From: an uncultured Pseudomonadota bacterium
GTDB taxonomy: Bacteria > Pseudomonadota > Alphaproteobacteria > RF32 > CAG-239
Reading direction: 5' to 3'
Length of the DNA stretch: 64,000 nucleotides
NCBI GenBank assembly: GCA_902494875.1
Contig: CABUUO010000002.1
Coordinates: forward strand, 32,547 to 96,546
Shown: piece by piece, positions 1-58,902 of the stretch
Layout of the letters: each line of letters opens with the position of its first letter
How positions within the stretch are numbered: the stretch's first letter is position 1
Program-made: the position numbers and the translations under genes
The notes under the pieces: model-generated
What the model was told of the DNA's origin: nothing
What the model saw: the letters and a program-made list of their open reading frames with translations, nothing else
The model's database searches: none

Positions 1-1
1 C

Positions 2-316
2 GAAGAAAGCACTCCGCAAAACGGCGATGAGAACCTGGTTGAAGACCCGGTAGAAGATTGGCTTGCAGAAGAAGGCAAAACCCTGAAAACCCTGCTGACC
101 GAATGGAGCGACAAAGCCGGCTGGAGACTGATTTGGAACTCTAACCGCAATTATACATTGACTGCAGGCGCAATGTTCCGCGGACGCTTTGCCGACGTCA
201 GTTCAGCGCTGATCAGAGCTTTTGCAAGGGCGCGGCCGGCTCCGATTGCAACATTTTATAAAGGCAACCGCGTATTGGTTGTAGAGACACTGGAGGATGA
301 AAATGCATATGAATAA
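2..316 (+). CDS. C-terminal fragment of a pilus biogenesis protein encoded upstream of the secretin (PilM/TcpQ-like position)
   Basis: Reading frame 2 is open from the window edge to a TAA at 314-316 and overlaps the secretin start. The family assignment is by gene position only. Confidence 0.35.
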   Translation, partial: EESTPQNGDENLVEDPVEDWLAEEGKTLKTLLTEWSDKAGWRLIWNSNRNYTLTAGAMFRGRFADVSSALIRAFARARPAPIATFYKGNRVLVVETLEDENAYE

Positions 317-1919
317 TTATACCAAAGCGGTTTTGGGCTTTTTTGCCGCGGCAGCCATCGCCTCATGCTCCATGTCAACGCATCTGGACGCCGAAATTGA
401 ACGCGAAATCGAAACGGCGACCAAACTGAAAGAAGAATCAAAAGCTCCGGGAAAGCCGATTGCTGATGATATCGTACGGGTTAAGAACGACATCTGGCTC
501 GGAGACAAATCTCAAGTCGAATATGAAGGCGAACCCCTTCCCAGTTATCTGGAAGGCAAAGACGGCGTGACGCTTATCAGCAACAGGCCGATTACGCTGT
601 TTGAAATCGGTGACATGATTACCAAAATCACGTCCGTGGGCGTTCGTTATGCTTCTCATCTTGAGAAAGACATTCGCGACATGGCCAAGGAAAACAAGCC
701 GGATCCGGAAACGATTAATGCGGACTGGACCGAACCCGATAAAATGCTGGTTTCCTATAAAGGCCCTTTAAGCGGTTTGCTTGACGAAATTGCCACTCGG
801 TTCGGCATCTGGTGGAAGTATGAAAAAGGACAAATTTACTTCTACAAATATGAAAGCAGGACTTTCGTTCTCTACAGCTTGCCGACAAAACCCTCGCTCA
901 GCGTTTCCATGGGCGGAAGCTCCTCGGGCGAGAGCGGAAACGCGTCAACTACGCTTACCAGCCAGATTGACGTTGCTTTATGGGACAACATTGAAAAAGC
1001 CATTACATCCATGATCAGCGGCGATTCAAAGCTGACAATGGATCCGGCCAACGGAACGATTTCAGTTTTGGCGACACCGATCGAGGTTAAAAGAATTGCA
1101 AAATTCATCAACGAACAAAATGCAAGACTGTCCCGTCAGGTTGCCATCAGCGTAAAAGTCCTGCAGGTCACGGTTGCCGATTCAGACAAATACGGCCTGG
1201 ACATTGCCGCGGCGTTTAACGACGGCGTGACCAGCTTGGGCGTAGCCGGCGCATCCGGTTCGACCGGCGAAACGACCAATAACCTGCTGATGAGCATAGC
1301 CCCCGGCAACTGGAAAGTTGACAGCTTTATTCAGGCGCTGTCTACCAAAAACGATACGTCTTTGGTTACCAGCGGTACGGTTACGACGCTGAACAACAAG
1401 CCGGCGCCGATCCAGGTCACCAAAAAACAGAACTATATTTCCGAAATTACAAAAACAAACTCCGGCAGCAGCGACGGCAGCAGCGACTATGACATTTCAA
1501 CCACGACAGAAGAAATCGAAACGGGTTTCACGCTTGACGTTCTGCCGAGGATTCTGGAACACGGACGTTTGATGATGATGTTCAACCTGACTCTGTCAGA
1601 CCTGATTTCACTGGAGAAGGTTTATCTGACAACCAGCGAAAGCGGCGAAGCAGATTCAGGACAATACATTCAGAACCCGATTGTCGAAACCCGCGGCTTT
1701 ACGCAGGAAGTGGCGATGAAATCCGGTGAATCCCTGATTTTGAGCGGTTATGAACGCGTTGAAAGCAAAGCAGACAAAACCGGTGTCGGTTCGGCAGAAA
1801 ACTCTCTGCTCGGCGGAACGGCCAGCGCTGAAAAAACCAGAAGCATGCTGGTTATCATTTTGACGCCGGTGGTTTTGGAATCGCCGCTGACGCCGGAATC
1901 CAGAATGAAAACATACTAA
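297..1919 (+). CDS. Type IVb pilus secretin, lipoprotein (PilN of R64 / BfpB / TcpC family)
   Basis: N-terminal lipoprotein signal with lipobox (AAAIAS-C). C-terminal secretin-like region (VLATPIEVKRIAKFI...QVAISVKVLQV, Gly/Ser/Thr-rich beta-domain). It is the first gene of a pilus operon. Confidence 0.7.
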   Translation: MKMHMNNYTKAVLGFFAAAAIASCSMSTHLDAEIEREIETATKLKEESKAPGKPIADDIVRVKNDIWLGDKSQVEYEGEPLPSYLEGKDGVTLISNRPITLFEIGDMITKITSVGVRYASHLEKDIRDMAKENKPDPETINADWTEPDKMLVSYKGPLSGLLDEIATRFGIWWKYEKGQIYFYKYESRTFVLYSLPTKPSLSVSMGGSSSGESGNASTTLTSQIDVALWDNIEKAITSMISGDSKLTMDPANGTISVLATPIEVKRIAKFINEQNARLSRQVAISVKVLQVTVADSDKYGLDIAAAFNDGVTSLGVAGASGSTGETTNNLLMSIAPGNWKVDSFIQALSTKNDTSLVTSGTVTTLNNKPAPIQVTKKQNYISEITKTNSGSSDGSSDYDISTTTEEIETGFTLDVLPRILEHGRLMMMFNLTLSDLISLEKVYLTTSESGEADSGQYIQNPIVETRGFTQEVAMKSGESLILSGYERVESKADKTGVGSAENSLLGGTASAEKTRSMLVIILTPVVLESPLTPESRMKTY

Positions 1920-1939
1920 ACTTGATTTAGGAAAAAGCA

Positions 1940-3220
1940 ATGGCGCTTGAAGATGCTAATTTGACAGACATTAATCCTGATGCAGAAGGGAAACGCACTT
2001 GGGGAACCAAAATAACGGTTGACGGCACCAGTTATGCCACCAGTCTGTTCTGGCAGCCCCTGCAAAATCAGGAAGATCCGTTTACGGAAGTCGGAGAAGC
2101 GTCCGAAGGTATTCTGGAAGGCGCCGATTTGTTTTGTATCAAGCCGGGCAAGGCACCGCAGTTTGGTATCTGCGTTTCTCACGAAGGTTATAAGAGCGGA
2201 GAAAACGTCGCCGCGGTTGCTTTGGCAACCGCGCTGTCCGACCGTTCGTCTTTTGTGGCAGTTTTTCAAACCGACAAAGGCTGGTGGTATACCTGCGTCA
2301 GAAACGACATTATCCTTTCTGACGGCGATATGCTGTTTTTAAACGAAGAAGACGCCAAAAACCAATTTATTTCGATGTTGGCCGTACCGGACTGGGGACG
2401 TAAAATTGCACCGGCGGCTTGGGGTATTGAAGAAACCGAGGATATTGAGCTGGAAAAATTGATGCAGCGCGGATTACACTCCAAACTGCAAAAGATCAAA
2501 GGGCTCCGCGGCGCCAAACTGCTGATGGTTATCGGCATTTCGGCAGTAGTTGTTTTCTGGCTTTTGTCTAATATTATTAACGCATTGTTTTTTACCCCCA
2601 AAAAGCGTCCGGTCATTGTTCCGGTTCAGCCTAAAATAATCAAGCCGGTAGTGGAAAAAGCGCCGGAGGTTAAACCTTGGGAACGCTTAAACGATCCGTC
2701 TCAGGTTATGAGCGGATGCATGGCAAAAATCGAACAGCTGGTCAGAATTATGCCGCCCGGATGGCAAATTGGCAACCTCAGCTGCACTCCGACCGGCGTA
2801 TCAACCAGTTGGAACAGACAAATCGGACGTTTGTCCTGGGTAAAAAAAGCTTTGGACGTGTCGGGAATTCAGTTTTCATATCGGACGTTTTCCGATACGG
2901 GCGACAGTATAGCGGCGGGCGTATCGTTGGGAAAAATCGTTCAGATTTCTTCACCGCCGATGAAAAGTCCGACGGAGCTTCGGGAGATGCTGAACGACTT
3001 TTTCCAAGGCATTAACCAAAACGTCGCTTTGAGCGACGGTTCTTATACATCGCCGGAAAAGAATATATATCGCTTTATCGGCTTTCGGTTTTCATCAACG
3101 TACAATCCGGAAGTATGGAGCGGCTTGTTAACAAAATTTTCAGGACTTGAGATTAAAGTTATAAATTATTCACCCAGTACAAATGTCTGGACCTACGAGG
3201 GGGCTATTTATGCATTATAA
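1940..3220 (+). CDS. Pilus assembly protein, PilO(R64)-like, single transmembrane segment
   Basis: 426 aa with one central hydrophobic helix (LLMVIGISAVVVFWLLSNIINALFF). Its size and position after the secretin match R64 PilO / Bfp assembly components. Confidence 0.4.
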   Translation: MALEDANLTDINPDAEGKRTWGTKITVDGTSYATSLFWQPLQNQEDPFTEVGEASEGILEGADLFCIKPGKAPQFGICVSHEGYKSGENVAAVALATALSDRSSFVAVFQTDKGWWYTCVRNDIILSDGDMLFLNEEDAKNQFISMLAVPDWGRKIAPAAWGIEETEDIELEKLMQRGLHSKLQKIKGLRGAKLLMVIGISAVVVFWLLSNIINALFFTPKKRPVIVPVQPKIIKPVVEKAPEVKPWERLNDPSQVMSGCMAKIEQLVRIMPPGWQIGNLSCTPTGVSTSWNRQIGRLSWVKKALDVSGIQFSYRTFSDTGDSIAAGVSLGKIVQISSPPMKSPTELREMLNDFFQGINQNVALSDGSYTSPEKNIYRFIGFRFSSTYNPEVWSGLLTKFSGLEIKVINYSPSTNVWTYEGAIYAL

Positions 3221-4619
3221 TATGAAAAAAATATTTGTGACAACGGCGCTGGCGTTAATATTCGGTTTAACCTGTTCCGGAAATGTTATGGCACAGGCTG
3301 CCATTTCTTTGTCTGATGATGCAAAAAAAGCCGACACCCAATCTGCTGCCAACGAGATTCCAGATGAAATATCTCTGTTTGGCGATGACGGCGACGATAT
3401 TCTGACACCGCCGGCGAAAACCGAACCAGAAACAGCGAAAACCGAAAATAAACCGGAAGCAGCCAAAGATGACAAACAGGCTCCGTCGGAAACGGCAGCT
3501 CCGGGTCTGCCGGTTTTAGACATGCCGGCACAGCCCGAAAACGTTGAAAAGCCGCAAATTCCGGCCATTCCCGTTATCCCGGCCCCGGCGGCACAACAGG
3601 CCCCCCAGCCCGCAGCCATTCCCGAACCCAAACAGCAGGTTCCGGTCTTCAGCCAGTTGGGCAGTCAGATTATTGAAGACATTGACGACGACGTCTTTGC
3701 CAAAATGTCTGATCTTGAAAAAGAAACGGCAGTTTTGAATTTGGAACTGCGCAAAGAAAAAGTCAAAAACGACATTGAGGCTCTGCGCGCCATGCGCGAC
3801 AAAGCCCAAGAAGAGGAAGAAGCGCGCAAACACGCCGAAAAGCTTAAACAAATCGCTCTTGAAAAAGAGGAAGAGCGAAAAATCCTTTTGGAACAGCAAA
3901 AGTTAAAAAATCTTGAAATCGTTTATGAAAAAGAACGTCAGGAAAAGCTGTTAAAGGCATATAAAAACAAAATGCTGGAAGAAAGCCAGAAGTGGATAGA
4001 ACGCAATGCCGAAAATTATAAAGAAATCGCGGACTTGAAAAATGAACGGCAAAAACTTATTAATGACTTTAAGGGCAAGTTTGTCCAACTGACCAAAATG
4101 GCCGATGAAGCAACAAACGAGGCAATCCGGGTACGGGATAATTATGCCAAGACAATATCAGATCTGCAAACTCAGATATCTATTCTCAATGCTCGTCTGG
4201 AAGCAAGCGAGAAAACCAATCCGTTTGCGGAAAACGGCGGAGAACAAGCGGCTCCGCTTGAGGAAGAAGAGGCCTTAAAGCTTAGTGATTTGTATGCCGT
4301 TATGGAAATTCGCGGCAAAGGAAAAAATTTGAGCGCAAAATTGATTAACGAGAGCGGAGCACCATTCTTTGTCAAAGTGGGTACCGTGTTGCAAAGCGGA
4401 CATGTTGTTGACGAAATATCCTCAACTTATGTCCGGGCCGACAAAGAGGGCAGCAAAGATTATCTTTATTTCTCGGCCGGCGGCGTTCTTGATCAGGAAC
4501 CGGTGACCAACGAGGAGTTGAAAGTAAAGGTTTCCGATCCGGAGCAAGCTCCGGCGCCGAGCGGTATTGTTTCAAACCAAGGGATTCCCGGAATTGCTAG
4601 AGAAATGACCGTCAGATAG
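3210..4619 (+). CDS. Secreted pilus assembly protein with Pro-rich linker and long coiled-coil (PilP-like C-terminal domain)
   Basis: Signal peptide MKKIFVTTALALIFGLTCSGNVMA, preceded by a GAGGGGG ribosome-binding site. It has a Pro/Ala/Gln-rich segment, a Glu/Lys-rich heptad region and a C-terminal beta-rich domain. Confidence 0.4.
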   Translation: MHYNMKKIFVTTALALIFGLTCSGNVMAQAAISLSDDAKKADTQSAANEIPDEISLFGDDGDDILTPPAKTEPETAKTENKPEAAKDDKQAPSETAAPGLPVLDMPAQPENVEKPQIPAIPVIPAPAAQQAPQPAAIPEPKQQVPVFSQLGSQIIEDIDDDVFAKMSDLEKETAVLNLELRKEKVKNDIEALRAMRDKAQEEEEARKHAEKLKQIALEKEEERKILLEQQKLKNLEIVYEKERQEKLLKAYKNKMLEESQKWIERNAENYKEIADLKNERQKLINDFKGKFVQLTKMADEATNEAIRVRDNYAKTISDLQTQISILNARLEASEKTNPFAENGGEQAAPLEEEEALKLSDLYAVMEIRGKGKNLSAKLINESGAPFFVKVGTVLQSGHVVDEISSTYVRADKEGSKDYLYFSAGGVLDQEPVTNEELKVKVSDPEQAPAPSGIVSNQGIPGIAREMTVR

Positions 4620-4621
4620 TC

Positions 4622-6310
4622 ATGGCAGATGAGATGGAAAACGAACCGGAAGAGAAAGAAGTCAAGGATAGTCAGGAAAAACCGGCCGACGGAGTACCCA
4701 GCGTAGCGGTTTCAACCGGTCCTGTTGCGGCTCCGATTACCCAGTCTTTAGGCAAGCTGGAACTTTATTTTGCCAACGGACGAAAATTGCTCACCGTTCC
4801 CGGCGGAACTCTTAATATCAATGATGACACGCGCCGGCTTCTGGCCTTGTTCTCTGACGGAAGTTTTTTGGTAGCCGAATCACATAAGTTCGACGGACGC
4901 GTTTTGAGCTTTGAAGTTTTGGCACGCAGGAAACGGATTAACATCTTAAAACCGGTCTATCTGTCTCAAAACGAGCTTAACGCCATTTACAACTATGCCG
5001 AAAGAAACGTTGCCGACGCCGATGCCGACGAAGATCTTGACGCATTGCAAATGCAGAAAGACTTTGTGAACGTTATTGCCCGGGCCGCGGAAAAAAAGGT
5101 GTCCGATATTCACGTTGTGGTGGCAGACAGCACGCAGATTATGTTTCGCGTCAACGGCATGATGTCCATTGAAATGGAATATAACAAAGACTGGGGCGAA
5201 TCTTTTGTCCGCGCGGCCTTTGCTTCGGCGGACATTTCGGACTCCAACTATGCGCAGAACGAATTTCAGGGCGCACAGAAGCTGGGGTCGACCCCTCTGC
5301 GCGGGTCTAAAGGCAAGCTGATGCTGCCGCATAACGTTTTGGCCATCCGCTTACAGTTTAATCCGATTGCGTTTGGTTCTCAATATTTGGTCATGCGTCT
5401 GTTGTATGCCGACGACAATCCTAACGGCAGCGGCGATTTGGCATCGTTAGGACTGGGCGAATATGAAGAGAAGCTGTTTTACCGTCTGAGAGCGGTTCCG
5501 ACCGGAGTCAGCATCGTTTCCGGTCCGACCGGTTCCGGAAAATCAACGACCCTGCAAAGAAACATGATTAAACTTTTGCAGGAAAAGAATTACGAAATTA
5601 ATCTGATTACGGTGGAAGATCCGCCGGAATATCCCATTCCCGGCGCCAGACAGATGCCGGTGACAAACGCCAATACTGAAGAAGAAAAAGATGAACAGTT
5701 CACCAAAGCGCTATCGGCGGCGCTGCGTTCCGACCCTGACGTCATGATGGTCGGTGAAATTCGTTCGCTTTCGGCTGCACAATTGACTTTTAAGGGCGCT
5801 TTGTCCGGACACGGTATGTGGACCACGCTGCACGCCAACTCAGCGCCGGCAATTATCCCCCGTCTGCGCGATATGGGCGTGGAGACATTTAAGCTCGGCG
5901 ACCCGGAGCTGGTTAAAGGATTAATCGGTCAGCGTCTGTTCAGAAAGCTCTGCCCGCATTGCCGCAAATCAGTCAAGGAAATGCTTGACGAACCGGCAGT
6001 ACAGCGTCTGAAAGTAGCTTTGGGCGATTTTGGCATTGAAAACACCTATGTACGCGGTCCCGGCTGTAAGTTCTGCGGAGGTTCCGGAATCAAAGGACGT
6101 ATGAGCGTGCCAGAGATTATTCTGCCGGATGCCATGTTTTTGGAACTGATCATTAAAGGCGAAACCCGTAAAGCCATTGACTACTGGACCAGCGATCTGG
6201 GCGGCAGAACGATGAAAGACGCGGCTATCGAAAGAATGCTGAAGGGATATATTGATCTTGACGAAGTAGAACGCTGGTGCGGACTGATGGACCAGCGCCC
6301 GGTTTATTAA
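4622..6310 (+). CDS. Type IV pilus assembly ATPase (GspE/PilB/BfpD/R64-PilQ family)
   Basis: Walker A motif GPTGSGKSTT and Asp-box/His-box region. It has a C-terminal tetracysteine motif (CPHCRK...CKFCGGSG), typical of secretion ATPases. Confidence 0.85.
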   Translation: MADEMENEPEEKEVKDSQEKPADGVPSVAVSTGPVAAPITQSLGKLELYFANGRKLLTVPGGTLNINDDTRRLLALFSDGSFLVAESHKFDGRVLSFEVLARRKRINILKPVYLSQNELNAIYNYAERNVADADADEDLDALQMQKDFVNVIARAAEKKVSDIHVVVADSTQIMFRVNGMMSIEMEYNKDWGESFVRAAFASADISDSNYAQNEFQGAQKLGSTPLRGSKGKLMLPHNVLAIRLQFNPIAFGSQYLVMRLLYADDNPNGSGDLASLGLGEYEEKLFYRLRAVPTGVSIVSGPTGSGKSTTLQRNMIKLLQEKNYEINLITVEDPPEYPIPGARQMPVTNANTEEEKDEQFTKALSAALRSDPDVMMVGEIRSLSAAQLTFKGALSGHGMWTTLHANSAPAIIPRLRDMGVETFKLGDPELVKGLIGQRLFRKLCPHCRKSVKEMLDEPAVQRLKVALGDFGIENTYVRGPGCKFCGGSGIKGRMSVPEIILPDAMFLELIIKGETRKAIDYWTSDLGGRTMKDAAIERMLKGYIDLDEVERWCGLMDQRPVY

Positions 6311-6326
6311 AGTTTAGGAGAGAATT

Positions 6327-7460
6327 ATGGCAGGCGAACAGGAAAAAAGAAGCGCGTCCAATTCGATGCAAAAGGCTATGCGCAAGCTCAATACGGTTGA
6401 GGAATATTACGCTAAGCTGATTTGTAACTTTTCCAATGAAGCACGATTAAAACTCTATCGCAAAATCGCCTCGCTGATGAGAAACCGCTTTTCTCTGATG
6501 AGTGCTTTGGATATGCTTCATGACAGCGCCAGCGACGGCGGCAAAAGTCCGGGAGAACCGATGGCTATCGCCATTGCCTGCTGGGGTCGGGCGCTCAACA
6601 ACGGTTTGACGTTTTCCGACGCTCTGAAAGGCTGGGCTCCGGACCGTGAACGACTGATGCTGTCGGTCGGTGACGTCTCAGACCTGGAAGGCGCTCTGCT
6701 CAACCTTATTCGTGTTACCGAAGGTTCAACAAAGATGATCCGTCCGATTATCGGCGCAATTGCTTACCCGACCTTTTTGTTTTTGATGGCGGTTTTGATT
6801 ATTTACGGTATCGGCGTATATATGGTGCCGCCGATGTTGGATGCGGCGCCCGGCGTTCGTTGGCGAGGACTGGCAAAAGATCTGGTTGATGTTTCGGCCT
6901 GGATTCAACAATATTGGCTGGTTGCATTTTCAGCACTGCCGATCACAATGCTGGTCATCTACCTGACAATCGGACTCTGGACCGGACCTATCCGCGCCAT
7001 TGTCGATAATATGCCGCCTTATTCACTTTATAAGGTGTTCGTCGGCATCAGTTGGCTGCTGGCCTTGTCCGCACTGGTTAAGGGCGGTACGCCGGTATCA
7101 ACGGCGATGCGGGCCTTGAGGCGCGACGCGACCCGCTATTTGAAAGAAAGAATTGACAAGACGCTGGTCTTCATCAACAACGGTGACAACCTTGGTATTG
7201 CCCTGAAAAAAACCGGACTTGATTTTCCCGATAAGGAAGTTATTGCCGATTTAAAAATTTATTCGGAATTGGATAACTTTGAAGAAGCTCTGGAATCGCT
7301 GGCCAATCAATGGCTGGAGGAGTCCGTTTATCTGATTGAGCAGAAGGCGGCTTTGTTAAATATGGCGGCAATTCTAAGCGTCGGCGGCGTTATCGCCTGG
7401 GCCGTCATGGGCACCTTTGAAATGCAAGACCAAATTACCAGCAGTATGGGACAAGGCTGA
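6327..7460 (+). CDS. Pilus inner-membrane platform protein (GspF/PilC/BfpE/R64-PilR family)
   Basis: 377 aa polytopic membrane protein immediately after the ATPase. An AGGAG ribosome-binding site precedes it. Confidence 0.65.
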   Translation: MAGEQEKRSASNSMQKAMRKLNTVEEYYAKLICNFSNEARLKLYRKIASLMRNRFSLMSALDMLHDSASDGGKSPGEPMAIAIACWGRALNNGLTFSDALKGWAPDRERLMLSVGDVSDLEGALLNLIRVTEGSTKMIRPIIGAIAYPTFLFLMAVLIIYGIGVYMVPPMLDAAPGVRWRGLAKDLVDVSAWIQQYWLVAFSALPITMLVIYLTIGLWTGPIRAIVDNMPPYSLYKVFVGISWLLALSALVKGGTPVSTAMRALRRDATRYLKERIDKTLVFINNGDNLGIALKKTGLDFPDKEVIADLKIYSELDNFEEALESLANQWLEESVYLIEQKAALLNMAAILSVGGVIAWAVMGTFEMQDQITSSMGQG

Positions 7461-8047
7461 TGGAAAAGGCAAAAATAATTTTTAATAAAGCAATAAAAAT
7501 TTTTCATTCACCGGAAAGAATCGGCATTGCCGCGGCCGGAGCCGTTGTCATAATTGCCGCGGCAGCTTGGTTTTTGCTTAAAAGTCCGAAACCAGACGCC
7601 AATATTGTTACGGCCGGCAATCAAATCAGCCTGTTGACAGATAATGTACGAAAATTTTACCGTAATCGTCCCGATGCTTGGGGACTAAATACGCAATCTG
7701 TTTTGAAAAATGCAATTGCTCCCCAGGAAATGGTTCAAAACGGCAAATTGATTAACGCATTAGGAAAGGAAACCTTGGTCGGTGCGGATTCAAACGGCAC
7801 GACGGTTATGCCCGGCAGCAGAAATTTTGCCATTACTTTCAGAGGACTGGATTATGAAGAATGCGTTGAACTGTCCGCACTGGCTCCCGACGAAAAGACA
7901 GCATTGAGCCTTACTTCGGAAACGATTGCCAACGAGACAGAAACAATGTTTATCTGGGGCGGAGAACATCCGCTTCCGATAACAAGAAAAGCTGCGGAAG
8001 AATTCTGCAAACAACAAAATTCTCTCATTTGGAACATATTGTTATAG
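7460..8047 (+). CDS. Divergent pilin-like protein (minor pilin candidate)
   Basis: N-terminal hydrophobic helix. Its C-terminal region matches the pattern of the two downstream pilins (F-x-G-L-x-x-[DE]-x-C-V-x-L-[AS], with a second Cys near the C-terminus). Its start overlaps the platform gene's stop (TGATG). Confidence 0.4.
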   Translation: MEKAKIIFNKAIKIFHSPERIGIAAAGAVVIIAAAAWFLLKSPKPDANIVTAGNQISLLTDNVRKFYRNRPDAWGLNTQSVLKNAIAPQEMVQNGKLINALGKETLVGADSNGTTVMPGSRNFAITFRGLDYEECVELSALAPDEKTALSLTSETIANETETMFIWGGEHPLPITRKAAEEFCKQQNSLIWNILL

Positions 8048-8127
8048 TTTCTGTTTTACAGAATAAAGTTATATGTTTCAAAGCGTAATTATGACTAAAG
8101 ATAGGCTTATTTATCTTTTATTAATAA

Positions 8128-8142
8128 GTTATAGTTAAGATG
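8128..8142 (+). promoter_or_regulatory. Candidate -10 / conserved upstream motif gttataGttaAgatg for pilin gene 1
   Basis: Same 15-mer (2 mismatches) found upstream of pilin gene 2; contains TATAGT. Confidence 0.25.
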
Positions 8143-8183
8143 TGAGAAGAAAAAACTTTGAAGTGTGTTTTAGGAGAAAAGAG

Positions 8184-8798
8184 ATGAAGAGTTTATTCAA
8201 AAATGAGCAGAGCGGACGTTCCATGGTGGAAATGCTCGGCGTGCTCGCGATTATCGGCGTATTGTCGGTCGGCGGTATCTCCGGTTATTCGAAAGCCATG
8301 GCTAAATTTAAACTGACCAAGGCGCAAGACCAGTTGTCCATGATGATTATGAACATCAGAACCGCATTTGCAACCTCCCCTGGTTATCCGGGTTTAACAA
8401 CAAAAAATGCTATTGATTACAAGCTGGTATCTCAGGAAATGGTCGTTGCCGGAAGTACTTCGTTGATTAACGCATTTGGCGGCGATACGATTGTTGAAGC
8501 AATTAACGGAGCGGATGGTACTCCTAACGGTGCATTCCAGATTGTATTCTCCGGTCTCGGTAAAGATGTCTGCGTCAGCTTGGCTACCTCTGATTGGGGT
8601 ACTGACGGCTTAATTGGTATCGGCGTTGCCTCTACCAAAATCAGTAAAATTACAGGTACGCCGTCCGCTGCAGTTTCATTTGCAGGTGGCGGCAGTTTGA
8701 ACGGGCCTAAGGCTCTGCCGTTGTCTATTTCTGACGTTCGTAAGTCCAATGCCTGTGGTTCGGATAACACCAACTCGATTACCTGGGTTTATAACTAA
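8184..8798 (+). CDS. Type IV prepilin (major pilin candidate 1)
   Basis: Leader ...NEQSG followed by RSMVEMLGVLAIIGVLSVGG, with Glu at +5 after the predicted Gly cleavage site. An AGGAG ribosome-binding site precedes ATG 8184. An upstream in-frame GTG at 8142 is an alternative start. The C-terminus has a disulfide pair. Confidence 0.75.
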   Translation: MKSLFKNEQSGRSMVEMLGVLAIIGVLSVGGISGYSKAMAKFKLTKAQDQLSMMIMNIRTAFATSPGYPGLTTKNAIDYKLVSQEMVVAGSTSLINAFGGDTIVEAINGADGTPNGAFQIVFSGLGKDVCVSLATSDWGTDGLIGIGVASTKISKITGTPSAAVSFAGGGSLNGPKALPLSISDVRKSNACGSDNTNSITWVYN

Positions 8799-8824
8799 AG
8801 TTATAAGAGGCATAATTTTCTATA

Positions 8825-8856
8825 AAAAGGTGTGTTTTGACACACCTTTTTATTTT
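8825..8856 (+). terminator. Rho-independent terminator after pilin gene 1
   Basis: GC stem (ggtgtg...cacacc) followed by a T-run. Confidence 0.5.
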
Positions 8857-8874
8857 ACCCGAAATAAATCTATG

Positions 8875-8889
8875 TTATAATTAGGATGA
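8875..8889 (+). promoter_or_regulatory. Candidate -10 / conserved upstream motif gttataAttaGgatg for pilin gene 2
   Basis: Contains TATAAT. It is the paralogous motif to 8128-8142. Confidence 0.25.
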
Positions 8890-8915
8890 TATTATTTAAT
8901 TAAGAGGGGTCAAAA

Positions 8916-9503
8916 ATGAACAGAAACGAACAATCCGGAAGATCAATGGTTGAAATTCTCGGCGTTTTGGCCATTGTTGGTGTGCTTTCTGTCGGCGGTA
9001 TTGCCGGCTATTCAAAAGCGATGGCTAAATTTAAGCTGACAAAGGCACAAGACCAACTGCAGATGATGGTGATGAATATCCGCACGGCTTACGTCACTTC
9101 CCCGGGATTTCCGGATCTTAATACCGCGCATGTAATTGAATATAAACTGGCCTCCTCCGAAATGATGGTTGATTCAAAAAATCTGCTGAACGCCTTTGGC
9201 GGAAAGGTTTATGTTGAGGCAACCGAAAATCTGGAAAGAAATTCCGACGGCGCGTTTGCTATTCTTTATGCCGGTCTGGGGCGGGACTCTTGCGTCAGTC
9301 TGGCAACCTCCGACTGGGGTACGGACGGACTAATCGGGATTTACGTTGATTCGACGACCGACCCGATTAACAAGATCGAAAATCCTAACGCATTGTCCAA
9401 AGAACAACTCAAACAACCTTCAGAACTTCCCATTTCGCTGACAACGGCACGAGAAAAATGCAGTTCGGACAATAACAACCTTATAACCTGGTATTATCTT
9501 TAA
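8916..9503 (+). CDS. Type IV prepilin (pilin paralog 2)
   Basis: The N-terminal 60 aa are nearly identical to the upstream pilin (MNRNEQSGRSMVEILGVLAIVGVLSVGGIAGYSKAMAKFKLTKAQDQL). The C-terminal domain is diverged. Confidence 0.75.
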   Translation: MNRNEQSGRSMVEILGVLAIVGVLSVGGIAGYSKAMAKFKLTKAQDQLQMMVMNIRTAYVTSPGFPDLNTAHVIEYKLASSEMMVDSKNLLNAFGGKVYVEATENLERNSDGAFAILYAGLGRDSCVSLATSDWGTDGLIGIYVDSTTDPINKIENPNALSKEQLKQPSELPISLTTAREKCSSDNNNLITWYYL

Positions 9504-9510
9504 GACTGTA

Positions 9511-9538
9511 AAAGCACCGATTACGGTGCTTTTTTTAT
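9511..9538 (+). terminator. Rho-independent terminator after pilin gene 2
   Basis: agcaccg-atta-cggtgct followed by TTTTTTT. Confidence 0.6.
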
Positions 9539-9567
9539 GTCGTTCCGGTGCTTTCTTTTGTTCTGTT

Positions 9568-9745
9568 ATGCCGGACCTGATCCGGTATCCAGATCAAACA
9601 TTGATTCCTGCTTCCACTTGGACTCCGAGGCAAGCCCGGAGTGACCCAGCGTGGGCGTGCAGCGCATTATTTGTCATGTTTCGCTACGCTCAACATCCCA
9701 GCCGATTAACAAGGCTGAGGCCCTTCGACAAGCTCAGGGTGACAA
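9568..9745. repeat. Intergenic repeat element, copy A (resembles a small non-autonomous mobile element)
   Basis: Shares conserved blocks with 43268-43465: gccggacctgatccgg, tgacccagcgtgggcgtgc[ag]gcgcattatt, cagccgattaa, gctgag, ttcgaca, tcagggtgacaa. It starts with the palindrome ccggacctgatccgg. Confidence 0.6.
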
Positions 9746-9754
9746 CAAAGACAT

Positions 9755-11194
9755 CTAAAACAGACTATGTATGATTTTTACCATATCCGCCATTTCTATT
9801 TTTTGCGGCAAAGGGTTCACTTTTTGCGACTTGGAATAAACCAGCAGCGGAATATTCCGGTAGCCGAATTCTTCAACGCCGTGGTCTCCGTAAATGACAA
9901 ACAGCGAATCGTCCGGGCTGTTTTCGACCAGCCAACGCAATGACTGATCGACAAAGTTTACGGCATTGTAATAGTCATATTTCCGCTCCGGCGTTTTTGC
10001 AAACAGCGGACGCGGATTGTTTTTAACTTTATACTCGCTATGAGAACTGAGCGTAATGATAAAATTAAAAAGCTTATCATCCGAATGTTTTCGATTTTGT
10101 TTCAAGACAAAGTCAAACAGATCCCTGTCCGATATTCCCCAAAAATCGTCAGGATACCTGTCTTTCATATCCTCGTAGAAATAAATATCTTCATATTGCT
10201 GAGCTCTGACATGAGGACCGCGGTTGAAAAAGTCGGATTTAAAATTATGATAGAAACTCGTATGATATCCATTTGCTTTGGCTTTTTGCGACAGAGATTC
10301 CAAACGCGGCCAAACTTCCTTCGGAAGAAACATATGATAGATGATGGTAAACTCTTTTTCGGTAAAACCGCCGCTGTTCACAAAAAAATCGGTATTGGCA
10401 GAGGCGCCGTGAACCTTCTGGTTGACTTCGGCAAGCGTGCCTTCGGCGGCAAGACCGTTTAGAAACGGCGTCAATTCCCGTCCGTCAACTTTTTTATTGA
10501 TAACGTTATATGTCAGGCTCTCGGTTTGAATGACATAAATATGCCGACTTCCGGGGAAGCTGTATTTTATTTGCGGTTCACTTTCAGACAATTCAATAAT
10601 TTCATCTAAAATTTTACCGCTGCGTTTGCTTATTACCGTCTCATAAAGCCAGCAGGAGCGATAGCCGAAATTGAGGCAGGCATCATTAAAGAAACTCTGA
10701 GAAAAAAACAATATGGATACCGAGGCAAAGCTCGCATATATCAGCAAAGCCAGCGGAATAAGAAAAATCCAGAAAAAACGGCGATATTCTCTCAATATCG
10801 GATAGCAGCGGTTATAAAGCCCAAAATTGCCAAGACCGACAAGCAAAACTATCAAACTTTTATAATTTAAAACCGCTCCCGGAACCTTACTTAAAAACTC
10901 CGCCCCTTCACGATACTGAAACCAGATAATCGACAAAGACAGCGGCGGAACAAAATAGTTATGATACAGCAGCAGTCCCGAAGTTAAGACTATCTGAAAA
11001 GCTAGGGCCAGCCAGACCAAAATCCGGGGAAGAAAAAACAATATGCCCCAGAAACACATTCCGAAGATTAAAATAAAAAATCCGGCGGACATTATGTCCA
11101 AATCTGGAAAATACAATTTATTGGCTACAACGCCTTCCACACCCATCAAAAGTGCCAAAAGCAATATAAAAATGAACTTTTTATTATCTTTCAT
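9755..11194 (-). CDS. Membrane-anchored sulfatase-family transferase (LtaS / phosphoethanolamine- or phosphoglycerol-transferase-like)
   Basis: N-terminal domain with about 5 transmembrane helices. The C-terminal domain is alkaline-phosphatase/sulfatase-like (…LSSHSEYK…, VIYGDHG). It sits between the pilin genes and the PilT-like ATPase. Confidence 0.6.
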   Translation of the reverse strand: MKDNKKFIFILLLALLMGVEGVVANKLYFPDLDIMSAGFFILIFGMCFWGILFFLPRILVWLALAFQIVLTSGLLLYHNYFVPPLSLSIIWFQYREGAEFLSKVPGAVLNYKSLIVLLVGLGNFGLYNRCYPILREYRRFFWIFLIPLALLIYASFASVSILFFSQSFFNDACLNFGYRSCWLYETVISKRSGKILDEIIELSESEPQIKYSFPGSRHIYVIQTESLTYNVINKKVDGRELTPFLNGLAAEGTLAEVNQKVHGASANTDFFVNSGGFTEKEFTIIYHMFLPKEVWPRLESLSQKAKANGYHTSFYHNFKSDFFNRGPHVRAQQYEDIYFYEDMKDRYPDDFWGISDRDLFDFVLKQNRKHSDDKLFNFIITLSSHSEYKVKNNPRPLFAKTPERKYDYYNAVNFVDQSLRWLVENSPDDSLFVIYGDHGVEEFGYRNIPLLVYSKSQKVNPLPQKIEMADMVKIIHSLF

Positions 11195-11244
11195 ACTCTC
11201 TGCCGGCCTTTATTTAACAATTTATTTACTGAACTATATGACAA

Positions 11245-12252
11245 TTGAAAAAGATTGTACAGTTTATTTACAGAAAGTGTGATTATATGGTTAAACTAAA
11301 CAGTATCCGGTTTTCTGACATCTATATTACGCCGGACAAAACCTGCTTTATTCCCGACGGCGTGACCCAGAACGGTCTGGCCATTATCAAACCCGAAGAT
11401 TTTGACGTTTTTTATAATTTGATTGAGGAATCTTGGGACGGAGAAAATCCCAGCTATTCGGTACTGTATGAAAACATATTTTACCGCGTTGAACGCACCG
11501 TAGCCATTTACGGCGTTCAATACTGCGCCCGAAAGATGCCCGAGAAAGTGCCGCCGCTGGCGGCTCTTAACTTTCCGCGCGAACTGTGCCGTCATCTGCT
11601 TTCGCTCAGTTCGGCCAGCGGCCTGATTTTATGGTCAGGACCGACCGGCGCAGGAAAAACGACTTCCATCTCCGGACTGCTGAAAGAATATCTGACCATG
11701 GAAGGCGGTTTTGCCTATACTATCGAAGACCCAACCGAAATGCCTTTGGACGGCATTTACAAATCAATGAAAGGCGGCTTGGGACTTTGTAAACAAACCC
11801 AGCCGGTTAACGGCAACTGGGGTGCTTCGCTGAAGTCTGCCCTGCGTTCAAAACCACGTTTCATTTTCGTCGGCGAAATCCGCACGCCGGATACGGCCAG
11901 CGAAGTTCTGCGCGCCGCAACTTCAGGCCATCTGGTTTTATCGACCATCCACGCCAACAACATTGCCGACGCCATTAACTCGGTAGTTAAATATGCCTCT
12001 TCCACGACCATGAGCGAAGAACTGGCCTATGACCTGTTTTCACGCGGCATTCTCGGCGTAATGCACCAAACGCTGATCGGCGTTCATGACAAAAGACCGG
12101 CAATCAATTATCTATTTGCCAATCCGGATACGACCAAGGGCGACCAAGTCCGCGGCATTATCAAAGGCGGCAATCTCAATCTCGGAACATCCATTGAAAC
12201 GCAGATGACCAGAATGCGCAAAGGAATGAGCCTGTTTCCCGACTTGTCTTAA
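11245..12252 (+). CDS. PilT/PilU-like pilus retraction ATPase
   Basis: 335 aa with Walker A motif SGPTGAGKTTS and the conserved Asp/His boxes of PilT-class ATPases. An alternative start is at 11287. Confidence 0.7.
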   Translation: MKKIVQFIYRKCDYMVKLNSIRFSDIYITPDKTCFIPDGVTQNGLAIIKPEDFDVFYNLIEESWDGENPSYSVLYENIFYRVERTVAIYGVQYCARKMPEKVPPLAALNFPRELCRHLLSLSSASGLILWSGPTGAGKTTSISGLLKEYLTMEGGFAYTIEDPTEMPLDGIYKSMKGGLGLCKQTQPVNGNWGASLKSALRSKPRFIFVGEIRTPDTASEVLRAATSGHLVLSTIHANNIADAINSVVKYASSTTMSEELAYDLFSRGILGVMHQTLIGVHDKRPAINYLFANPDTTKGDQVRGIIKGGNLNLGTSIETQMTRMRKGMSLFPDLS

Positions 12253-12283
12253 AAAAAAGCCGCTTAAAAGCGGCTTTTTTTTA
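12251..12283. terminator. Bidirectional terminator between the PilT-like gene and gpt
   Basis: A-run, gccgc-ttaaaa-gcggc, then a T-run. Confidence 0.6.
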
Positions 12284-12712
12284 ATCCCAGGGGAAAACGA
12301 TCCATTCGTCCGGCATTTCTTTTTCATAGATATCGACAACCGGTGCTCCGGCAGATTTGGCATAAACCGTTACATATTTGGCCTGCGGATAAATGGCCCG
12401 CAAAATGCGAAACGTACGGCCGCTGTCTGACAAATCGTCGACAATCAGCGTTTTTTCGTTTACGGTACCGGGATGGCCGGAAATCTCAATATCTTCGTCG
12501 GCGCGGCGGTCATAGTTATTGTCATAGCTGGCAATATTGATTGACTGCGTATTGCGGATATTCAGCTCATAGGCTATTATACCGGCCGGCAGCAGACCGC
12601 CGCGGCTGATGGCGACAATTTTATCATATTCGCCGGAAGCTTTGATTTTTTGGCACAGTTTTTTGGTATGTTGATGAAATTCATCCCATTTAATATAAAT
12701 CTTATCAGTCAT
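12281..12712 (-). CDS. gpt: Xanthine-guanine phosphoribosyltransferase
   Basis: Full-length similarity to E. coli Gpt recalled from memory (IVAISRGGLLPAG..., VDDLSDSGRT...). 143 aa. Confidence 0.8.
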   Translation of the reverse strand: MTDKIYIKWDEFHQHTKKLCQKIKASGEYDKIVAISRGGLLPAGIIAYELNIRNTQSINIASYDNNYDRRADEDIEISGHPGTVNEKTLIVDDLSDSGRTFRILRAIYPQAKYVTVYAKSAGAPVVDIYEKEMPDEWIVFPWD

Positions 12713-13325: not shown

Positions 13326-13478
13326 ATGAAAAAAGGCCTGATGATGAAAAAAATAATGCGATATATGCTGGCAGCCGTTGTAATTTCGACAATTTTTGCA
13401 ATTACGGCCTGCGGAAAAGTTTCCGGCGCAGTTCCGATTGAAGGCAGCGGCTATCCGCATACATATCCCCGCCGATAA
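13326..13478 (+). CDS. Small lipoprotein (50 aa) upstream of the vWA gene
   Basis: MKKGLMMKKIMRYMLAAVVISTIFAITACGK... with a lipobox. It is not in the ORF track because it is under 60 aa. Confidence 0.3.
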   Translation: MKKGLMMKKIMRYMLAAVVISTIFAITACGKVSGAVPIEGSGYPHTYPRR

Positions 13479-13497
13479 GACTTTTGAGGAGCGTAAT

Positions 13498-14190
13498 ATG
13501 GTTTCTGCCGACGATAATTTTATTGATGAGATGATTCCTTATGTGGAATTTGCCGATAACGCCAACGAACGGACTCCGTGCGTGCTGGTTTTGGACTGTT
13601 CGGGCTCAATGCGCGGCGAACCGATTAAACAGCTCAATGCCGGACTGAAAGCTCTGGAAAAGGAACTCAAAGAAGACATCGACGCCAGTTCGAGAGTGCA
13701 GCTCCTGATTATCAAAGCTTTCGGCAAAGATGAGGCTGTGGTCTCTTCCGACTGGATTGACGCCATGAACTTTACGGCTCCGACCATGGAAGCAGGCGGA
13801 CTGACCCCGCTCGGCAAAGCCATGGAGCTGGCATTGCAAAAGATTGAAGAACAAAAATGCCTGTATGACAGCTGCGGCATTACGTCTAAACGGCCGTGGA
13901 TTTTTCTTATCAGCGACGGAGAACCGACCGATTATGACTGGGAGATCATTGCTGAAAAATGCCGTTATGCCCAGCAGAACAAAAAGGTGGTCGTCCATGC
14001 CGTAGGCACGCAAGGCGCCAACCTTGAAAAACTGGCCAAATTTTCGATTATGTCGCCCAAACGTCTGACCGGACTGAAATTTACCGAATTTTTCCTCTGG
14101 CTCAGCCGCAGCGTTTCCTGCATATCCAAAGCGGCTCCGAATGTTCCGGATTTATTAGAAGATACTGGCGACTGGGATGAAGACAAATAA
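13498..14190 (+). CDS. von Willebrand factor A domain protein (YegL-like)
   Basis: Metal-binding motif DCSGSM, typical of vWA. The start was chosen at MVSADD because a GAGGAG ribosome-binding site lies 7 nt upstream. About 230 aa. Confidence 0.75.
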   Translation: MVSADDNFIDEMIPYVEFADNANERTPCVLVLDCSGSMRGEPIKQLNAGLKALEKELKEDIDASSRVQLLIIKAFGKDEAVVSSDWIDAMNFTAPTMEAGGLTPLGKAMELALQKIEEQKCLYDSCGITSKRPWIFLISDGEPTDYDWEIIAEKCRYAQQNKKVVVHAVGTQGANLEKLAKFSIMSPKRLTGLKFTEFFLWLSRSVSCISKAAPNVPDLLEDTGDWDEDK

Positions 14191-14920
14191 AATCAAAGTA
14201 ATTGCCTCAAGCATCCGCGGGCCTCTGCACATAAACAAGGGCCTGCCTTGTCAGGACTGCTTTCGTTATTCCCGCGGCGGAAAAAATTTCGTCGCGGTGG
14301 TTTCCGATGGTGCAGGTTCGGCAAAATTCGGCAGAAACGGTGCAAAAATCGTTTGCGAAACCCTGATTGACCTGCTGAAAAACGCTCCGTTTTCCGATGC
14401 TAAAAAACATATTCGGAAAGCCATAGGCATTGCACGGGAAAAACTGGAAAGGCACCGTTTCAACAAGACCAAAGACGAAAAGGGAATCATGGATTTTTCG
14501 GCAACCGTGGTCGGTGTCATCTGCAATAAGAATCAGGGCCTGTTTTTCCATATCGGCGACGGTGCGGCACTGGCTTTTCGGGACGGGGAATATGAAAGAT
14601 TTACCGCTTCTCCTCCCGAAAACGGCAATTTTTCATGCGAAACCTATTTTTATACCCAGCCTGACTGGGAAAGAAATCTGCGCTTTACGGCTTTTGAAAA
14701 CGCCGATACCGTTTTTCTGATGAGCGACGGGCTGACCAATTTTTCCTTTGCACAGGATTACCAAAGCATTGAAAAAGGATTTATTCTGCCGATTAACAAG
14801 TTTTTGAACGAAACCGGCAGCAAGCCCAAGGCTGAAAGAGCCTTGGCCAATACGCTGAACAACGCGGAAGCCAGAAGGCTGAATTCTGATGACAAGACTC
14901 TTTTATGGGCGAGGCTATAA
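14177..14920 (+). CDS. PP2C-family Ser/Thr phosphatase (YegK/PphC-like)
   Basis: PCQDCF..., VVSDGAGS, MSDGL are PP2C metal-binding motifs. The gene overlaps the vWA gene by 14 nt. Confidence 0.7.
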   Translation: MKTNKIKVIASSIRGPLHINKGLPCQDCFRYSRGGKNFVAVVSDGAGSAKFGRNGAKIVCETLIDLLKNAPFSDAKKHIRKAIGIAREKLERHRFNKTKDEKGIMDFSATVVGVICNKNQGLFFHIGDGAALAFRDGEYERFTASPPENGNFSCETYFYTQPDWERNLRFTAFENADTVFLMSDGLTNFSFAQDYQSIEKGFILPINKFLNETGSKPKAERALANTLNNAEARRLNSDDKTLLWARL

Positions 14921-14922
14921 TC

Positions 14923-58891: not shown

Positions 58892-58902
58892 GGATCGCGT
58901 CA

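Follow-up and report, generated by a model that had tools for sequence, protein, structure and literature searches.

Positions 1-12252 of the 64-kb stretch of DNA analysed here (the window) carry a pilus gene cluster of an uncultured alphaproteobacterium, and raise the question of which class of machine this cluster encodes and whether that machine would be complete, retractile and resident on the chromosome. Work on type IVb (T4b) pili has dealt almost exclusively with enteric Gammaproteobacteria and plasmids, and the known roles of these pili are colonisation (the bundle-forming pilus Bfp, the toxin-coregulated pilus TCP and colonisation factor antigen CFA/III) or conjugation in liquid (R64). 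The reading that we consider probable, from the gene sequences and their comparison, is that the locus represents most of a chromosomal, retractile Bfp-like T4b operon that uses a loner prepilin peptidase, is inherited within its lineage and is paired with a type IV secretion system (T4SS).

Genes were taken from the list of open reading frames (ORFs), families were assigned by Pfam and NCBIfam scans, and comparisons employed BLAST, phmmer, hmmsearch, hhalign, the PDB and AlphaFold models. A related locus that is 99% identical to the window (L001) supplied the sequence 5' of window position 1. The secretin query yielded 74 related loci, in which gene presence was scored by tblastn; all 74 come from metagenome-assembled genomes (MAGs) of uncultured gut, faecal or rumen Alphaproteobacteria, with record names that include Azospirillum sp., Rhodospirillaceae and Candidatus Scatocola. 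Synteny was counted over the 62 loci long enough for the core genes, or over the 51 with enough flanking sequence. For the comparison with incompatibility group I (IncI) pili, an IncI-gamma/K1 plasmid stood in for R64 (AP005147). The Bfp comparison used the pMAR2 proteins (bfpA-L) of enteropathogenic Escherichia coli (EPEC), and the Bosea, Polaromonas and E. coli loci were taken from plasmid records. Our literature search found no papers on pili or T4SSs in this alphaproteobacterial lineage, and an exact-protein look-up of the window secretin returned no record.

Class and nearest relatives of the pilus machine

The genes and elements of the locus are as follows (window coordinates, strand, description).

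2..316, +, 3' end of a PilL/BfpG/TcpQ-like outer-membrane lipoprotein gene (the frame-2 translation equals the C-terminus of L001:9313-10020)
297..1919, +, type IVb lipoprotein secretin, PilN/BfpB/TcpC homologue (PF00263, TIGR02520)
1940..3220, +, PilO/BfpC-type bitopic inner-membrane assembly protein, 426 amino acids (PF06864, 37.1 bits; cutoff 26.7)
3183..4619, +, secreted coiled-coil protein, 478 amino acids, with a weak PilP/BfpU-like C-terminal domain (probable start ATG 3222)
4622..6310, +, BfpD-family pilus extension ATPase with the tetracysteine motif CPHC...CKFC (PF00437, E 8.6e-65)
6327..7460, +, inner-membrane platform protein of the PilR/BfpE/GspF family (PF00482 T2SSF in two stretches, E 1.6e-23)
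7460..8047, +, pilin-fold protein with a non-canonical N-terminus (Pfam Bundlin, 24.4 bits)
8184..8798, +, canonical type IVb prepilin 1, 204 amino acids (PF08805 and PF05307 above cutoff; ORF open from GTG 8142, likely start ATG 8184)
8916..9503, +, canonical type IVb prepilin 2, 195 amino acids, a paralogue of pilin 1 (62% identity)
9510..9533, no strand, intrinsic-terminator-like hairpin between the convergent pilin and transferase genes (10-bp stem, A and T runs on either side)
9755..11194, -, LtaS-like (sulfatase-family) membrane phosphotransferase (PF00884, E 3.5e-17)
11287..12252, +, BfpF-like putative retraction ATPase, 321 amino acids (PF00437; ORF open from TTG 11245, likely start ATG 11287)

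Every gene of the series proposed for this locus in a first-pass annotation is present in its place according to the ORF map and the Pfam and NCBIfam scans, as is the tetracysteine motif that it ascribed to the assembly ATPase.

Profile, BLAST and fold searches identify the locus as a type IVb pilus machine, neither a type II secretion system (T2SS) nor a tight adherence (Tad) system, in agreement with the class first assigned to it. In NCBIfam the secretin scored 272.7 bits (E 5e-81) against the PilN-family model TIGR02520 versus 112 bits for MshL and 42 for GspD, a lead of 160 bits over the next secretin model. The extension ATPase aligned full-length (residues 47-554) with PDB entry 8dze of BfpD at 324 bits, versus 164 bits for the best T2SS or type IVa (T4a) ATPase in the PDB (GspE) and ~22 bits for CpaF. 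Both canonical pilins pass the Pfam cutoffs for PF08805 PilS (34-37 bits; cutoff 22) and PF05307 Bundlin. The NCBIfam GspD, GspE and GspF equivalogs reached 42, 223 and 47 bits, under cutoffs of 351, 630 and 424; CpaF/TadA scores were just 22-44 bits, and all T2SS and Tad equivalogs (CpaF/TadB/TadC/Flp) stayed far under their cutoffs. Neither the secretin nor the ATPase is thus placed in a T2SS or Tad family.

The published definition of the T4b pilus (TXSScan/Denise 2019) makes a pilin, an extension ATPase, a platform, a secretin and a prepilin peptidase mandatory. The locus encodes a T4b-type secretin, a T4b-lineage extension ATPase, a two-domain platform and a class III pilin, and has no A24 prepilin peptidase. 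The long leader traditionally ascribed to T4b prepilins (about 13-30 amino acids) is also not seen, the leaders here being 8-11 amino acids; leader length is acknowledged to be non-discriminatory for this class (PMC10191384).

The envelope components are consistent with this placement. The full PilL/BfpG/TcpQ-like lipoprotein, as encoded in L001, has 235 amino acids, a lipobox (LAGC) and a C-terminal TcpQ domain (PF10671, E 1.6e-16), and its orthologues are matched by a BfpG query at ~1e-18 (phmmer). The secretin has the lipobox AAIAS/C (the slash marks the cleavage site), which is found again in orthologues, and is 27% identical to BfpB, 28% to the Bosea secretin and 31% to IncI PilN. A single central transmembrane (TM) segment lies near residue 195 of the PilO/BfpC-type protein, which is 28% identical to Bosea PilO2 and whose orthologues are matched by a BfpC query at ~1e-21 (phmmer). 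The coiled-coil protein sits at the PilP/BfpU position, between the PilO and ATPase genes, and consists of a signal peptide ending VMA/QAA, a Pro/Ala/Glu-rich low-complexity stretch, a long coiled coil and a C-terminal domain. In hhalign, the C-terminus of this protein aligned weakly and co-linearly with those of BfpU (E 0.0025 over 44 columns), PilP and Bosea hyp307. The platform protein shares 31-34% identity with the platforms of Bfp (BfpE), Polaromonas (PilR) and Bosea. Just upstream of the window (L001 7520-9271), the pil operon begins with a gene for a 583-residue protein, which has a hydrophobic segment at its N-terminus, continues with a long stretch of low complexity and ends in a conserved domain of ~100 amino acids; it had no match in Pfam or NCBIfam.

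Judged by sequence comparison, the locus is closer to Bfp than to the thin pilus of IncI/R64, and Bfp is its nearest characterised relative. BLAST scores for the Bfp and IncI counterparts, respectively, were 315 (36% identity) and 152 bits (29%) for the ATPase, 197 (31%) and 105 bits (22%) for the platform, and 181 (27%) and 145 bits (31%) for the secretin. BfpC (23% identity, 61 bits), BfpF (30%, 138 bits) and BfpG (33% over the TcpQ domain) were also detected. These higher Bfp bit scores, together with the detection of BfpC and BfpG, place the locus nearer Bfp. The initial description as an R64/Bfp/Tcp-type system is therefore right as to class, and its emphasis on R64 shifts to Bfp.

Homologues of BfpG, B, C, D, E and F occur in the same order as in Bfp (phmmer, BLAST). 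Both systems have a lipoprotein secretin, a tetracysteine extension ATPase and a dedicated PilT-like retraction ATPase, and the pilin is of the bundlin type (Pfam Bundlin; 25% identity to BfpA). In contrast to Bfp, the locus lacks homologues of the peptidase BfpP, the transglycosylase BfpH, the minor pilins BfpI/J/K and BfpL; phmmer queries with these proteins gave no match at E <= 1 save noise for BfpH. The pilin genes follow the platform gene here, whereas they come first in Bfp. The protein at the BfpU position has 478 amino acids and a long coiled coil, and the locus has in addition the conserved pilin-fold protein without a signal and the upstream 583-residue gene. It is also chromosomal, alphaproteobacterial and paired with a T4SS.

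The best BLAST matches among the systems compared came from one of the uncharacterised PilN/PilO2-type plasmid loci, that of Bosea sp. RAC05 pBSY19_1 (ATPase 39%, platform 34%, PilO2 28%, secretin 28%, PilT-like ATPase 35% identity); the others are on Polaromonas JS666 plasmid 2 and E. coli p2017.17.03CC_2. These loci share the core order TcpQ, secretin, PilO2, unnamed protein, ATPase and platform, with a PilT-like ATPase inside the locus, and those of Bosea and Polaromonas likewise have no annotated peptidase. They differ in being plasmid-borne and in that none has the signal-less pilin-fold protein or tandem RSMVE pilins; Bosea and Polaromonas carry a PilV adhesin and PilM, and the E. coli plasmid carries an A24 peptidase and a transglycosylase.

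R64/IncI1 belongs to the same class, with a PilN-type lipoprotein secretin (31%), a PilL-type TcpQ lipoprotein, Pfam PilO, PilQ/PilR homologues, the gene order L-N-O-P-Q-R-S and a neighbouring T4SS. IncI PilN, PilQ and PilR were detected at 22-31% identity and PilL weakly; IncI PilO, PilP and PilS had no BLAST match among the window proteins. Unlike R64, the locus lacks a PilT transglycosylase, a PilU peptidase, a PilV adhesin, a shufflon and Rci; the R64 pil operon has no PilT-like ATPase, and the partner T4SS of R64 is I-type, whereas that of the present locus is VirB/Cag-like.

In TCP and CFA/III-Longus, the resemblance lies in the predicted pilin fold, which matches TcpA and CofA best (E 1e-7 to 1e-4), and in a TcpQ domain that is paired with a lipoprotein secretin. 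To our knowledge, TCP and Cof have no retraction ATPase, and their retraction proceeds through the minor pilin TcpB/CofB. They differ further in their long leader peptides and in having their own peptidase, TcpJ/CofP. TcpB is treated in PMC5207764, and TcpJ is listed in Table 1 of PMC10191384.

Chromosomal setting, the divergent T4SS and the putative retraction ATPase

The core of the cluster has a fixed order: 583-residue protein, PilL, secretin, PilO, PilP-like protein, ATPase, platform and pilin-fold protein. Of these, the secretin gene and the five that follow it were detected in 62/62 loci long enough, the 583-residue gene in 66/74 and the PilL gene in 70/74. Downstream, genes for PRTase, redoxin, VWA, PP2C, kinase, NMO, SH3 and M20 proteins are syntenic in the closer relatives that were checked. 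In the rest of the window, between 21418 and 52217, five tRNA genes (Arg-CCT, Ser-GGA, Ala-GGC, Ala-CGC and Arg-ACG) are scattered among housekeeping genes for MalQ, alpha-amylase, S1, a GyrB/ParE-type topoisomerase subunit, two DnaJ paralogues and DnaK, which confirms a core-chromosome setting. This setting and the downstream synteny point to vertical inheritance rather than a plasmid, and the sequences thus indicate that the cluster is probably a vertically inherited chromosomal feature of the gut/rumen alphaproteobacterial lineage. A plasmid or E. coli origin was rejected separately, as megablast of positions 1-12500 against plasmids and E. coli genomes gave no match.

The pil operon is divergent from a VirB/Cag-like T4SS operon (L001 1-7220; L077-L081; L090-L091), and VirB4 lies upstream of it in 45 of the 51 loci with enough sequence. 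The T4SS operon starts with three VirB2/TrbC paralogues, a VirB3-like protein and VirB4, which are followed by 4-5 secreted coiled-coil proteins and a secreted protein of ~1,040-1,230 amino acids. It continues with VirB8, a 62-residue lipoprotein, a second VirB8 and a CagX/VirB9-like protein, after which come two giant proteins (1,139-1,293 amino acids; at least 1,487-1,809 amino acids) with YD-repeat matches. The coiled-coil and giant proteins matched no specific family beyond generic coiled-coil and YD-repeat models. The same architecture is kept in a distant relative. VirB6, VirB10, VirB11, VirD4 and a relaxase were not recognised in the T4SS stretch read, and the ~21 kb of T4SS sequence contained no relaxase, VirD4 coupling protein, VirB11, integrase or oriT-type gene.

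This arrangement leaves room for a different emphasis, namely that the pilus mainly serves the adjacent T4SS as a contact or mating-pair-stabilising pilus (cf. R64, PAPI-1) within a domesticated or mobile conjugation-type module. The divergent pairing with three VirB2 genes, VirB3 and VirB4 and the conservation of the T4SS in a distant relative favour such a role, as does the Polaromonas JS666 locus, which adjoins VirB9/VirB10 on a type T mating-pair formation (MPF_T) plasmid and runs from there through TcpQ, PilN and PilO2 on to PilT-like genes. Plasmid pYR4 has likewise been reported (PMC6232867) as having both a type IV pilus and a T4SS. Against it stand the missing relaxase, VirD4, VirB11, integrase and oriT-type gene, the syntenic core-chromosome flanks and the lack of a PilV adhesin or shufflon. 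Stabilisation of conjugative mating pairs may be considered possible from the gene content, for a core-chromosome locus in which no relaxase or coupling protein was seen. We regard a primary service to the T4SS as unlikely, though as the alternative with most in its favour; it is compatible with the retractile Bfp-like pilus proposed here.

The proposed retraction of the Bfp-like pilus would depend on the 321-residue ATPase, which is a relative of BfpF rather than a T4a PilT. It is 30% identical to EPEC BfpF across 98% of its length and 35% identical to the ATPase of the Bosea T4b locus, and a BfpF query finds its orthologues at 1e-45 (phmmer). Against TIGR01420 PilT it scored 105.6 bits, under the T4a PilT/PilU cutoff of 319.1. 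The Walker A motif is GPTGAGKT, and a His-box-like TIHAN motif was recognised by eye. BfpF drives retraction in EPEC, in accord with its RefSeq product name. The presence of such an ATPase had been called unusual for R64-type loci, a view that does not hold, for comparable ATPases recur inside annotated PilN/PilO2-type plasmid loci of Bosea, Polaromonas (two copies) and an E. coli IncF plasmid; a retraction-type ATPase is therefore recurrent in this branch of T4b systems and no oddity. Altogether, 109 plasmid records had a match covering at least 80% of the protein. In the related loci, the BfpF-like gene lies within ~3.8 kb of the cluster, in either orientation, in 27 of the 51 with enough downstream sequence.

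The same ATPase might instead be a traffic ATPase (the VirB11, DotB or TraJ equivalent) of the neighbouring T4SS. Its PDB scores were 75 bits for PilT, 69 for DotB and 23-26 for VirB11, the DotB alignment covers more of the protein, the NCBIfam TraJ and DotB models match at 70 and 64 bits, and no VirB11 was seen in the T4SS stretch read. The full-length identity to BfpF and the phmmer matches to the orthologues speak against such an assignment, as do the low VirB11 scores. Furthermore, the closest annotated homologues are inside T4b pil operons beside the platform gene, and the gene sits on the pilin side of the cluster, with 19 kb or more between it and the T4SS genes. A T4SS role for this protein is therefore improbable, and it is most simply read as the putative retraction motor of the Bfp-like pilus.

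Pilins, missing parts and neighbouring genes

The leader of prepilin 1 is MKSLFKNEQSG, followed by the mature N-terminus RSMVEMLGVLAIIGVLSVGG, and that of prepilin 2 is MNRNEQSG, followed by RSMVEILGVLAIVG. Both have Gly at -1 and Glu at +5, and the leader is succeeded by RSMVE(M/I)LGVLAI(I/V)GVLSVGG. Across loci the leaders are 6-17 amino acids long, which is short for T4b. The mature N-terminus, with Arg at +1, is unusual and differs hardly at all between loci, in contrast to the variable globular part, a pattern that suggests selection for function. For the AlphaFold pilin model (48 homologues; predicted local distance difference test score, pLDDT, 82.6), the 16 best-ranked PDB structures were all type IVb pilins, namely TcpA, CofA and S. 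typhi PilS. The pilin family is very large and highly diversified, comprising more than 7,600 clusters at 90% identity (E <= 1e-5), and the number of canonical pilin copies per gene cluster ranges from 0 to 4 between species. A promoter-like site lies at 8854-8881, ahead of prepilin 2. No inverted repeats of the kind expected for shufflon-type pilin variation were found around the pilin genes, the sole repeat there being a 251-nt 5' similarity (71%) between both pilin genes. The hairpin at 9510-9533, after the second pilin gene, is the likely end of the pil operon, so that the BfpF-like ATPase gene is probably a separate transcription unit.

Three pilin-like genes had been counted at this locus; two are canonical prepilins, and the first has a pilin fold without the prepilin motif. 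The globular part of this protein (7460-8047) is 32% identical to that of the neighbouring pilin over 157 amino acids (E 2e-13), and its AlphaFold model, built on an alignment of mostly pilins, matches type IVb pilins (S. typhi PilS, E 8.5e-5). Its N-terminus consists of a basic stretch followed by a TM helix, and no G(-1)/E(+5) prepilin motif is conserved across 66 orthologues. It is a core gene, present in every one of the 62 loci long enough, and belongs to a family with 122 representatives among 1.84 billion proteins.

The lack of a prepilin peptidase within 12 kb, remarked on at the outset, is borne out and extends much further. The search covered all ORFs of at least 60 amino acids in the window and in 86 related loci (1.6 Mb). 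Neither the 64-kb window nor ~30 kb upstream of it nor any of the 86 loci yielded an A24 prepilin peptidase. In a scan of the window for TM segments and GxGD motifs, the multi-TM proteins were just the platform, the LtaS-like protein and a major facilitator superfamily transporter, and none was a peptidase; multi-TM ORFs in the relatives were assigned by Pfam to MarC or to no family, again with no peptidase. Queries with BfpP, an E. coli plasmid A24 peptidase, a two-sequence A24 hidden Markov model and IncI PilU (the last three with search filters off) returned only noise over the 1.6 Mb (phmmer/hmmsearch), and PF01478 is absent from all precomputed gene listings. A peptidase beside pilin paralogues outside the cluster was also sought, and every pilin context examined fell inside the same cluster. 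A peptidase hidden near the locus was rejected on these grounds, that is, by the TM/GxGD scans, Pfam, the peptidase queries and the pilin contexts. The sequence upstream of position 1 contains the 583-residue gene, the PilL gene and then the VirB/Cag-like T4SS genes. Of the two places suggested for the missing gene, just upstream of position 1 or elsewhere in the genome, the first is thus unsupported over ~30 kb and the second stands by elimination. Since pilins with a G/xxxxE cleavage site need an A24 prepilin peptidase and none is near the locus, the sequences suggest that the peptidase must be encoded elsewhere in the genome as a loner gene. The published T4b pilus model is multi-locus because some genes are loners (PMC6668835).

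A homologue of the lytic transglycosylase (BfpH, R64 PilT) was not found in the window either. With no homologue of BfpP/PilU or of BfpH and the PilT transglycosylase in or near the locus, the cluster could be viewed as a decaying or non-functional remnant. All ORFs are intact, however, the core genes are retained in 62/62 species-level loci long enough (median identity 31-73%, tblastn), and the pilins vary in their globular part and scarcely at the N-terminus, which makes decay very improbable. A T2SS or Tad (T4c) system mis-read as T4b, an idea that could draw on T2SSE, T2SSF and Secretin being generic Pfam families common to all these systems, is effectively refuted by the NCBIfam scores (GspD/E/F and CpaF/TadA far below cutoffs), the PDB ATPase scores, the ~200-residue T4b-fold pilins, which are not Flp, and the presence of TcpQ and PilO/BfpC components.

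The sulfatase-family transferase listed in the original gene series is present, on the minus strand, and was detected in just 3 of the 74 loci plus L084/L085, the closest relatives of the window only. It is always located between the tandem pilins and the BfpF-like gene. The protein has approximately five N-terminal TM segments, its best PDB matches are lipoteichoic acid primase and synthases, and the GC content of its gene is below that of the surroundings. We regard the gene as a lineage-specific insertion, with an uncertain link to the pilus. Neisserial pilin phosphotransferases offer a speculative analogy for phospho-modification of pilins by this protein. By that analogy the LtaS-like protein may modify the pilins, or may equally be an unrelated insertion.

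Several features of the remaining window are recorded here as separate observations. The three adjacent genes at 13396-16386, for a VWA-domain protein, a PP2C phosphatase and a Ser/Thr protein kinase, resemble a TerY-P-type triad; they are syntenic in the relatives L084-L087, where they likewise follow the pilus cluster. A gene at 33700-34716 matches the ELM1 'mitochondrial fission' family PF06258 (E 2e-65). Two large adjacent proteins (1,562 and 665 amino acids), rich in Lys, Glu, Ala and Asp, are encoded at 54203-60900, a region with a strikingly high AT skew of 0.23-0.25; they belong to no convincing family and gave just a sub-threshold coiled-coil match.

Proposed assembly and biological meaning

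The gene set suggests the following assembly. The PilL/BfpG-like lipoprotein and the lipoprotein secretin would form the outer-membrane channel, which the PilO/BfpC-type protein and the coiled-coil protein at the PilP/BfpU position would link to the inner-membrane platform. A BfpD-type hexameric ATPase would drive polymerisation of the two RSMVE-type pilins, and the separately transcribed BfpF-like ATPase would drive retraction. The prepilins would be cleaved by the A24 peptidase encoded elsewhere in the genome. The signal-less pilin-fold protein, we infer, probably stays membrane-anchored as an assembly or priming component. The most likely uses of such a pilus would be adhesion, auto-aggregation and surface contact, and possibly bringing the T4SS to target cells.

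Several observations weigh against this proposal. The organism is known from MAGs only, and the system from its genes alone. The secretin score of 272.7 bits is below the curated TIGR02520 cutoff of 287.65, and the coiled-coil protein matched TIGR03021 PilP at 20.2 bits (residues 328-417), under the cutoff of 34.65. The class-mandatory prepilin peptidase was not found in the stretches searched, and in many distant relatives the cluster lacks a canonical pilin. The near-equal PilT and DotB scores of the BfpF-like ATPase also count here, as does the absence of its gene within ~3.8 kb in 24 of 51 loci and, in L082, within 10 kb, so that retraction may not extend to the whole lineage.

What distinguishes the locus from the systems compared is the non-canonical pilin-fold core protein, the extended protein at the PilP position and the pairing with a T4SS, as well as the peptidase, transglycosylase and minor pilins missing from it. 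A bolder and rather doubtful extension is that the pilus and the derived T4SS form a single fixed two-machine contact apparatus, in which the pilus reels targets onto the T4SS and the pilin-fold protein acts in priming. If this were true, the apparatus would characterise a whole lineage of uncultured gut/rumen Alphaproteobacteria, with bacterial or host cells as targets, and the pilin-fold protein would be anchored in the membrane as a primer or stator that needs no peptidase; no T4b system has been described with such a component.

As a caution, neither a missing peptidase nor an extra PilT-like ATPase is unusual in T4b loci. The Bfp-like T4b machine itself would be a stable chromosomal trait of a widespread uncultured gut/rumen alphaproteobacterial lineage, and its atypical T4SS pairing, signal-less pilin-fold protein and off-site peptidase may provide handles on attachment and interaction in these commensals.

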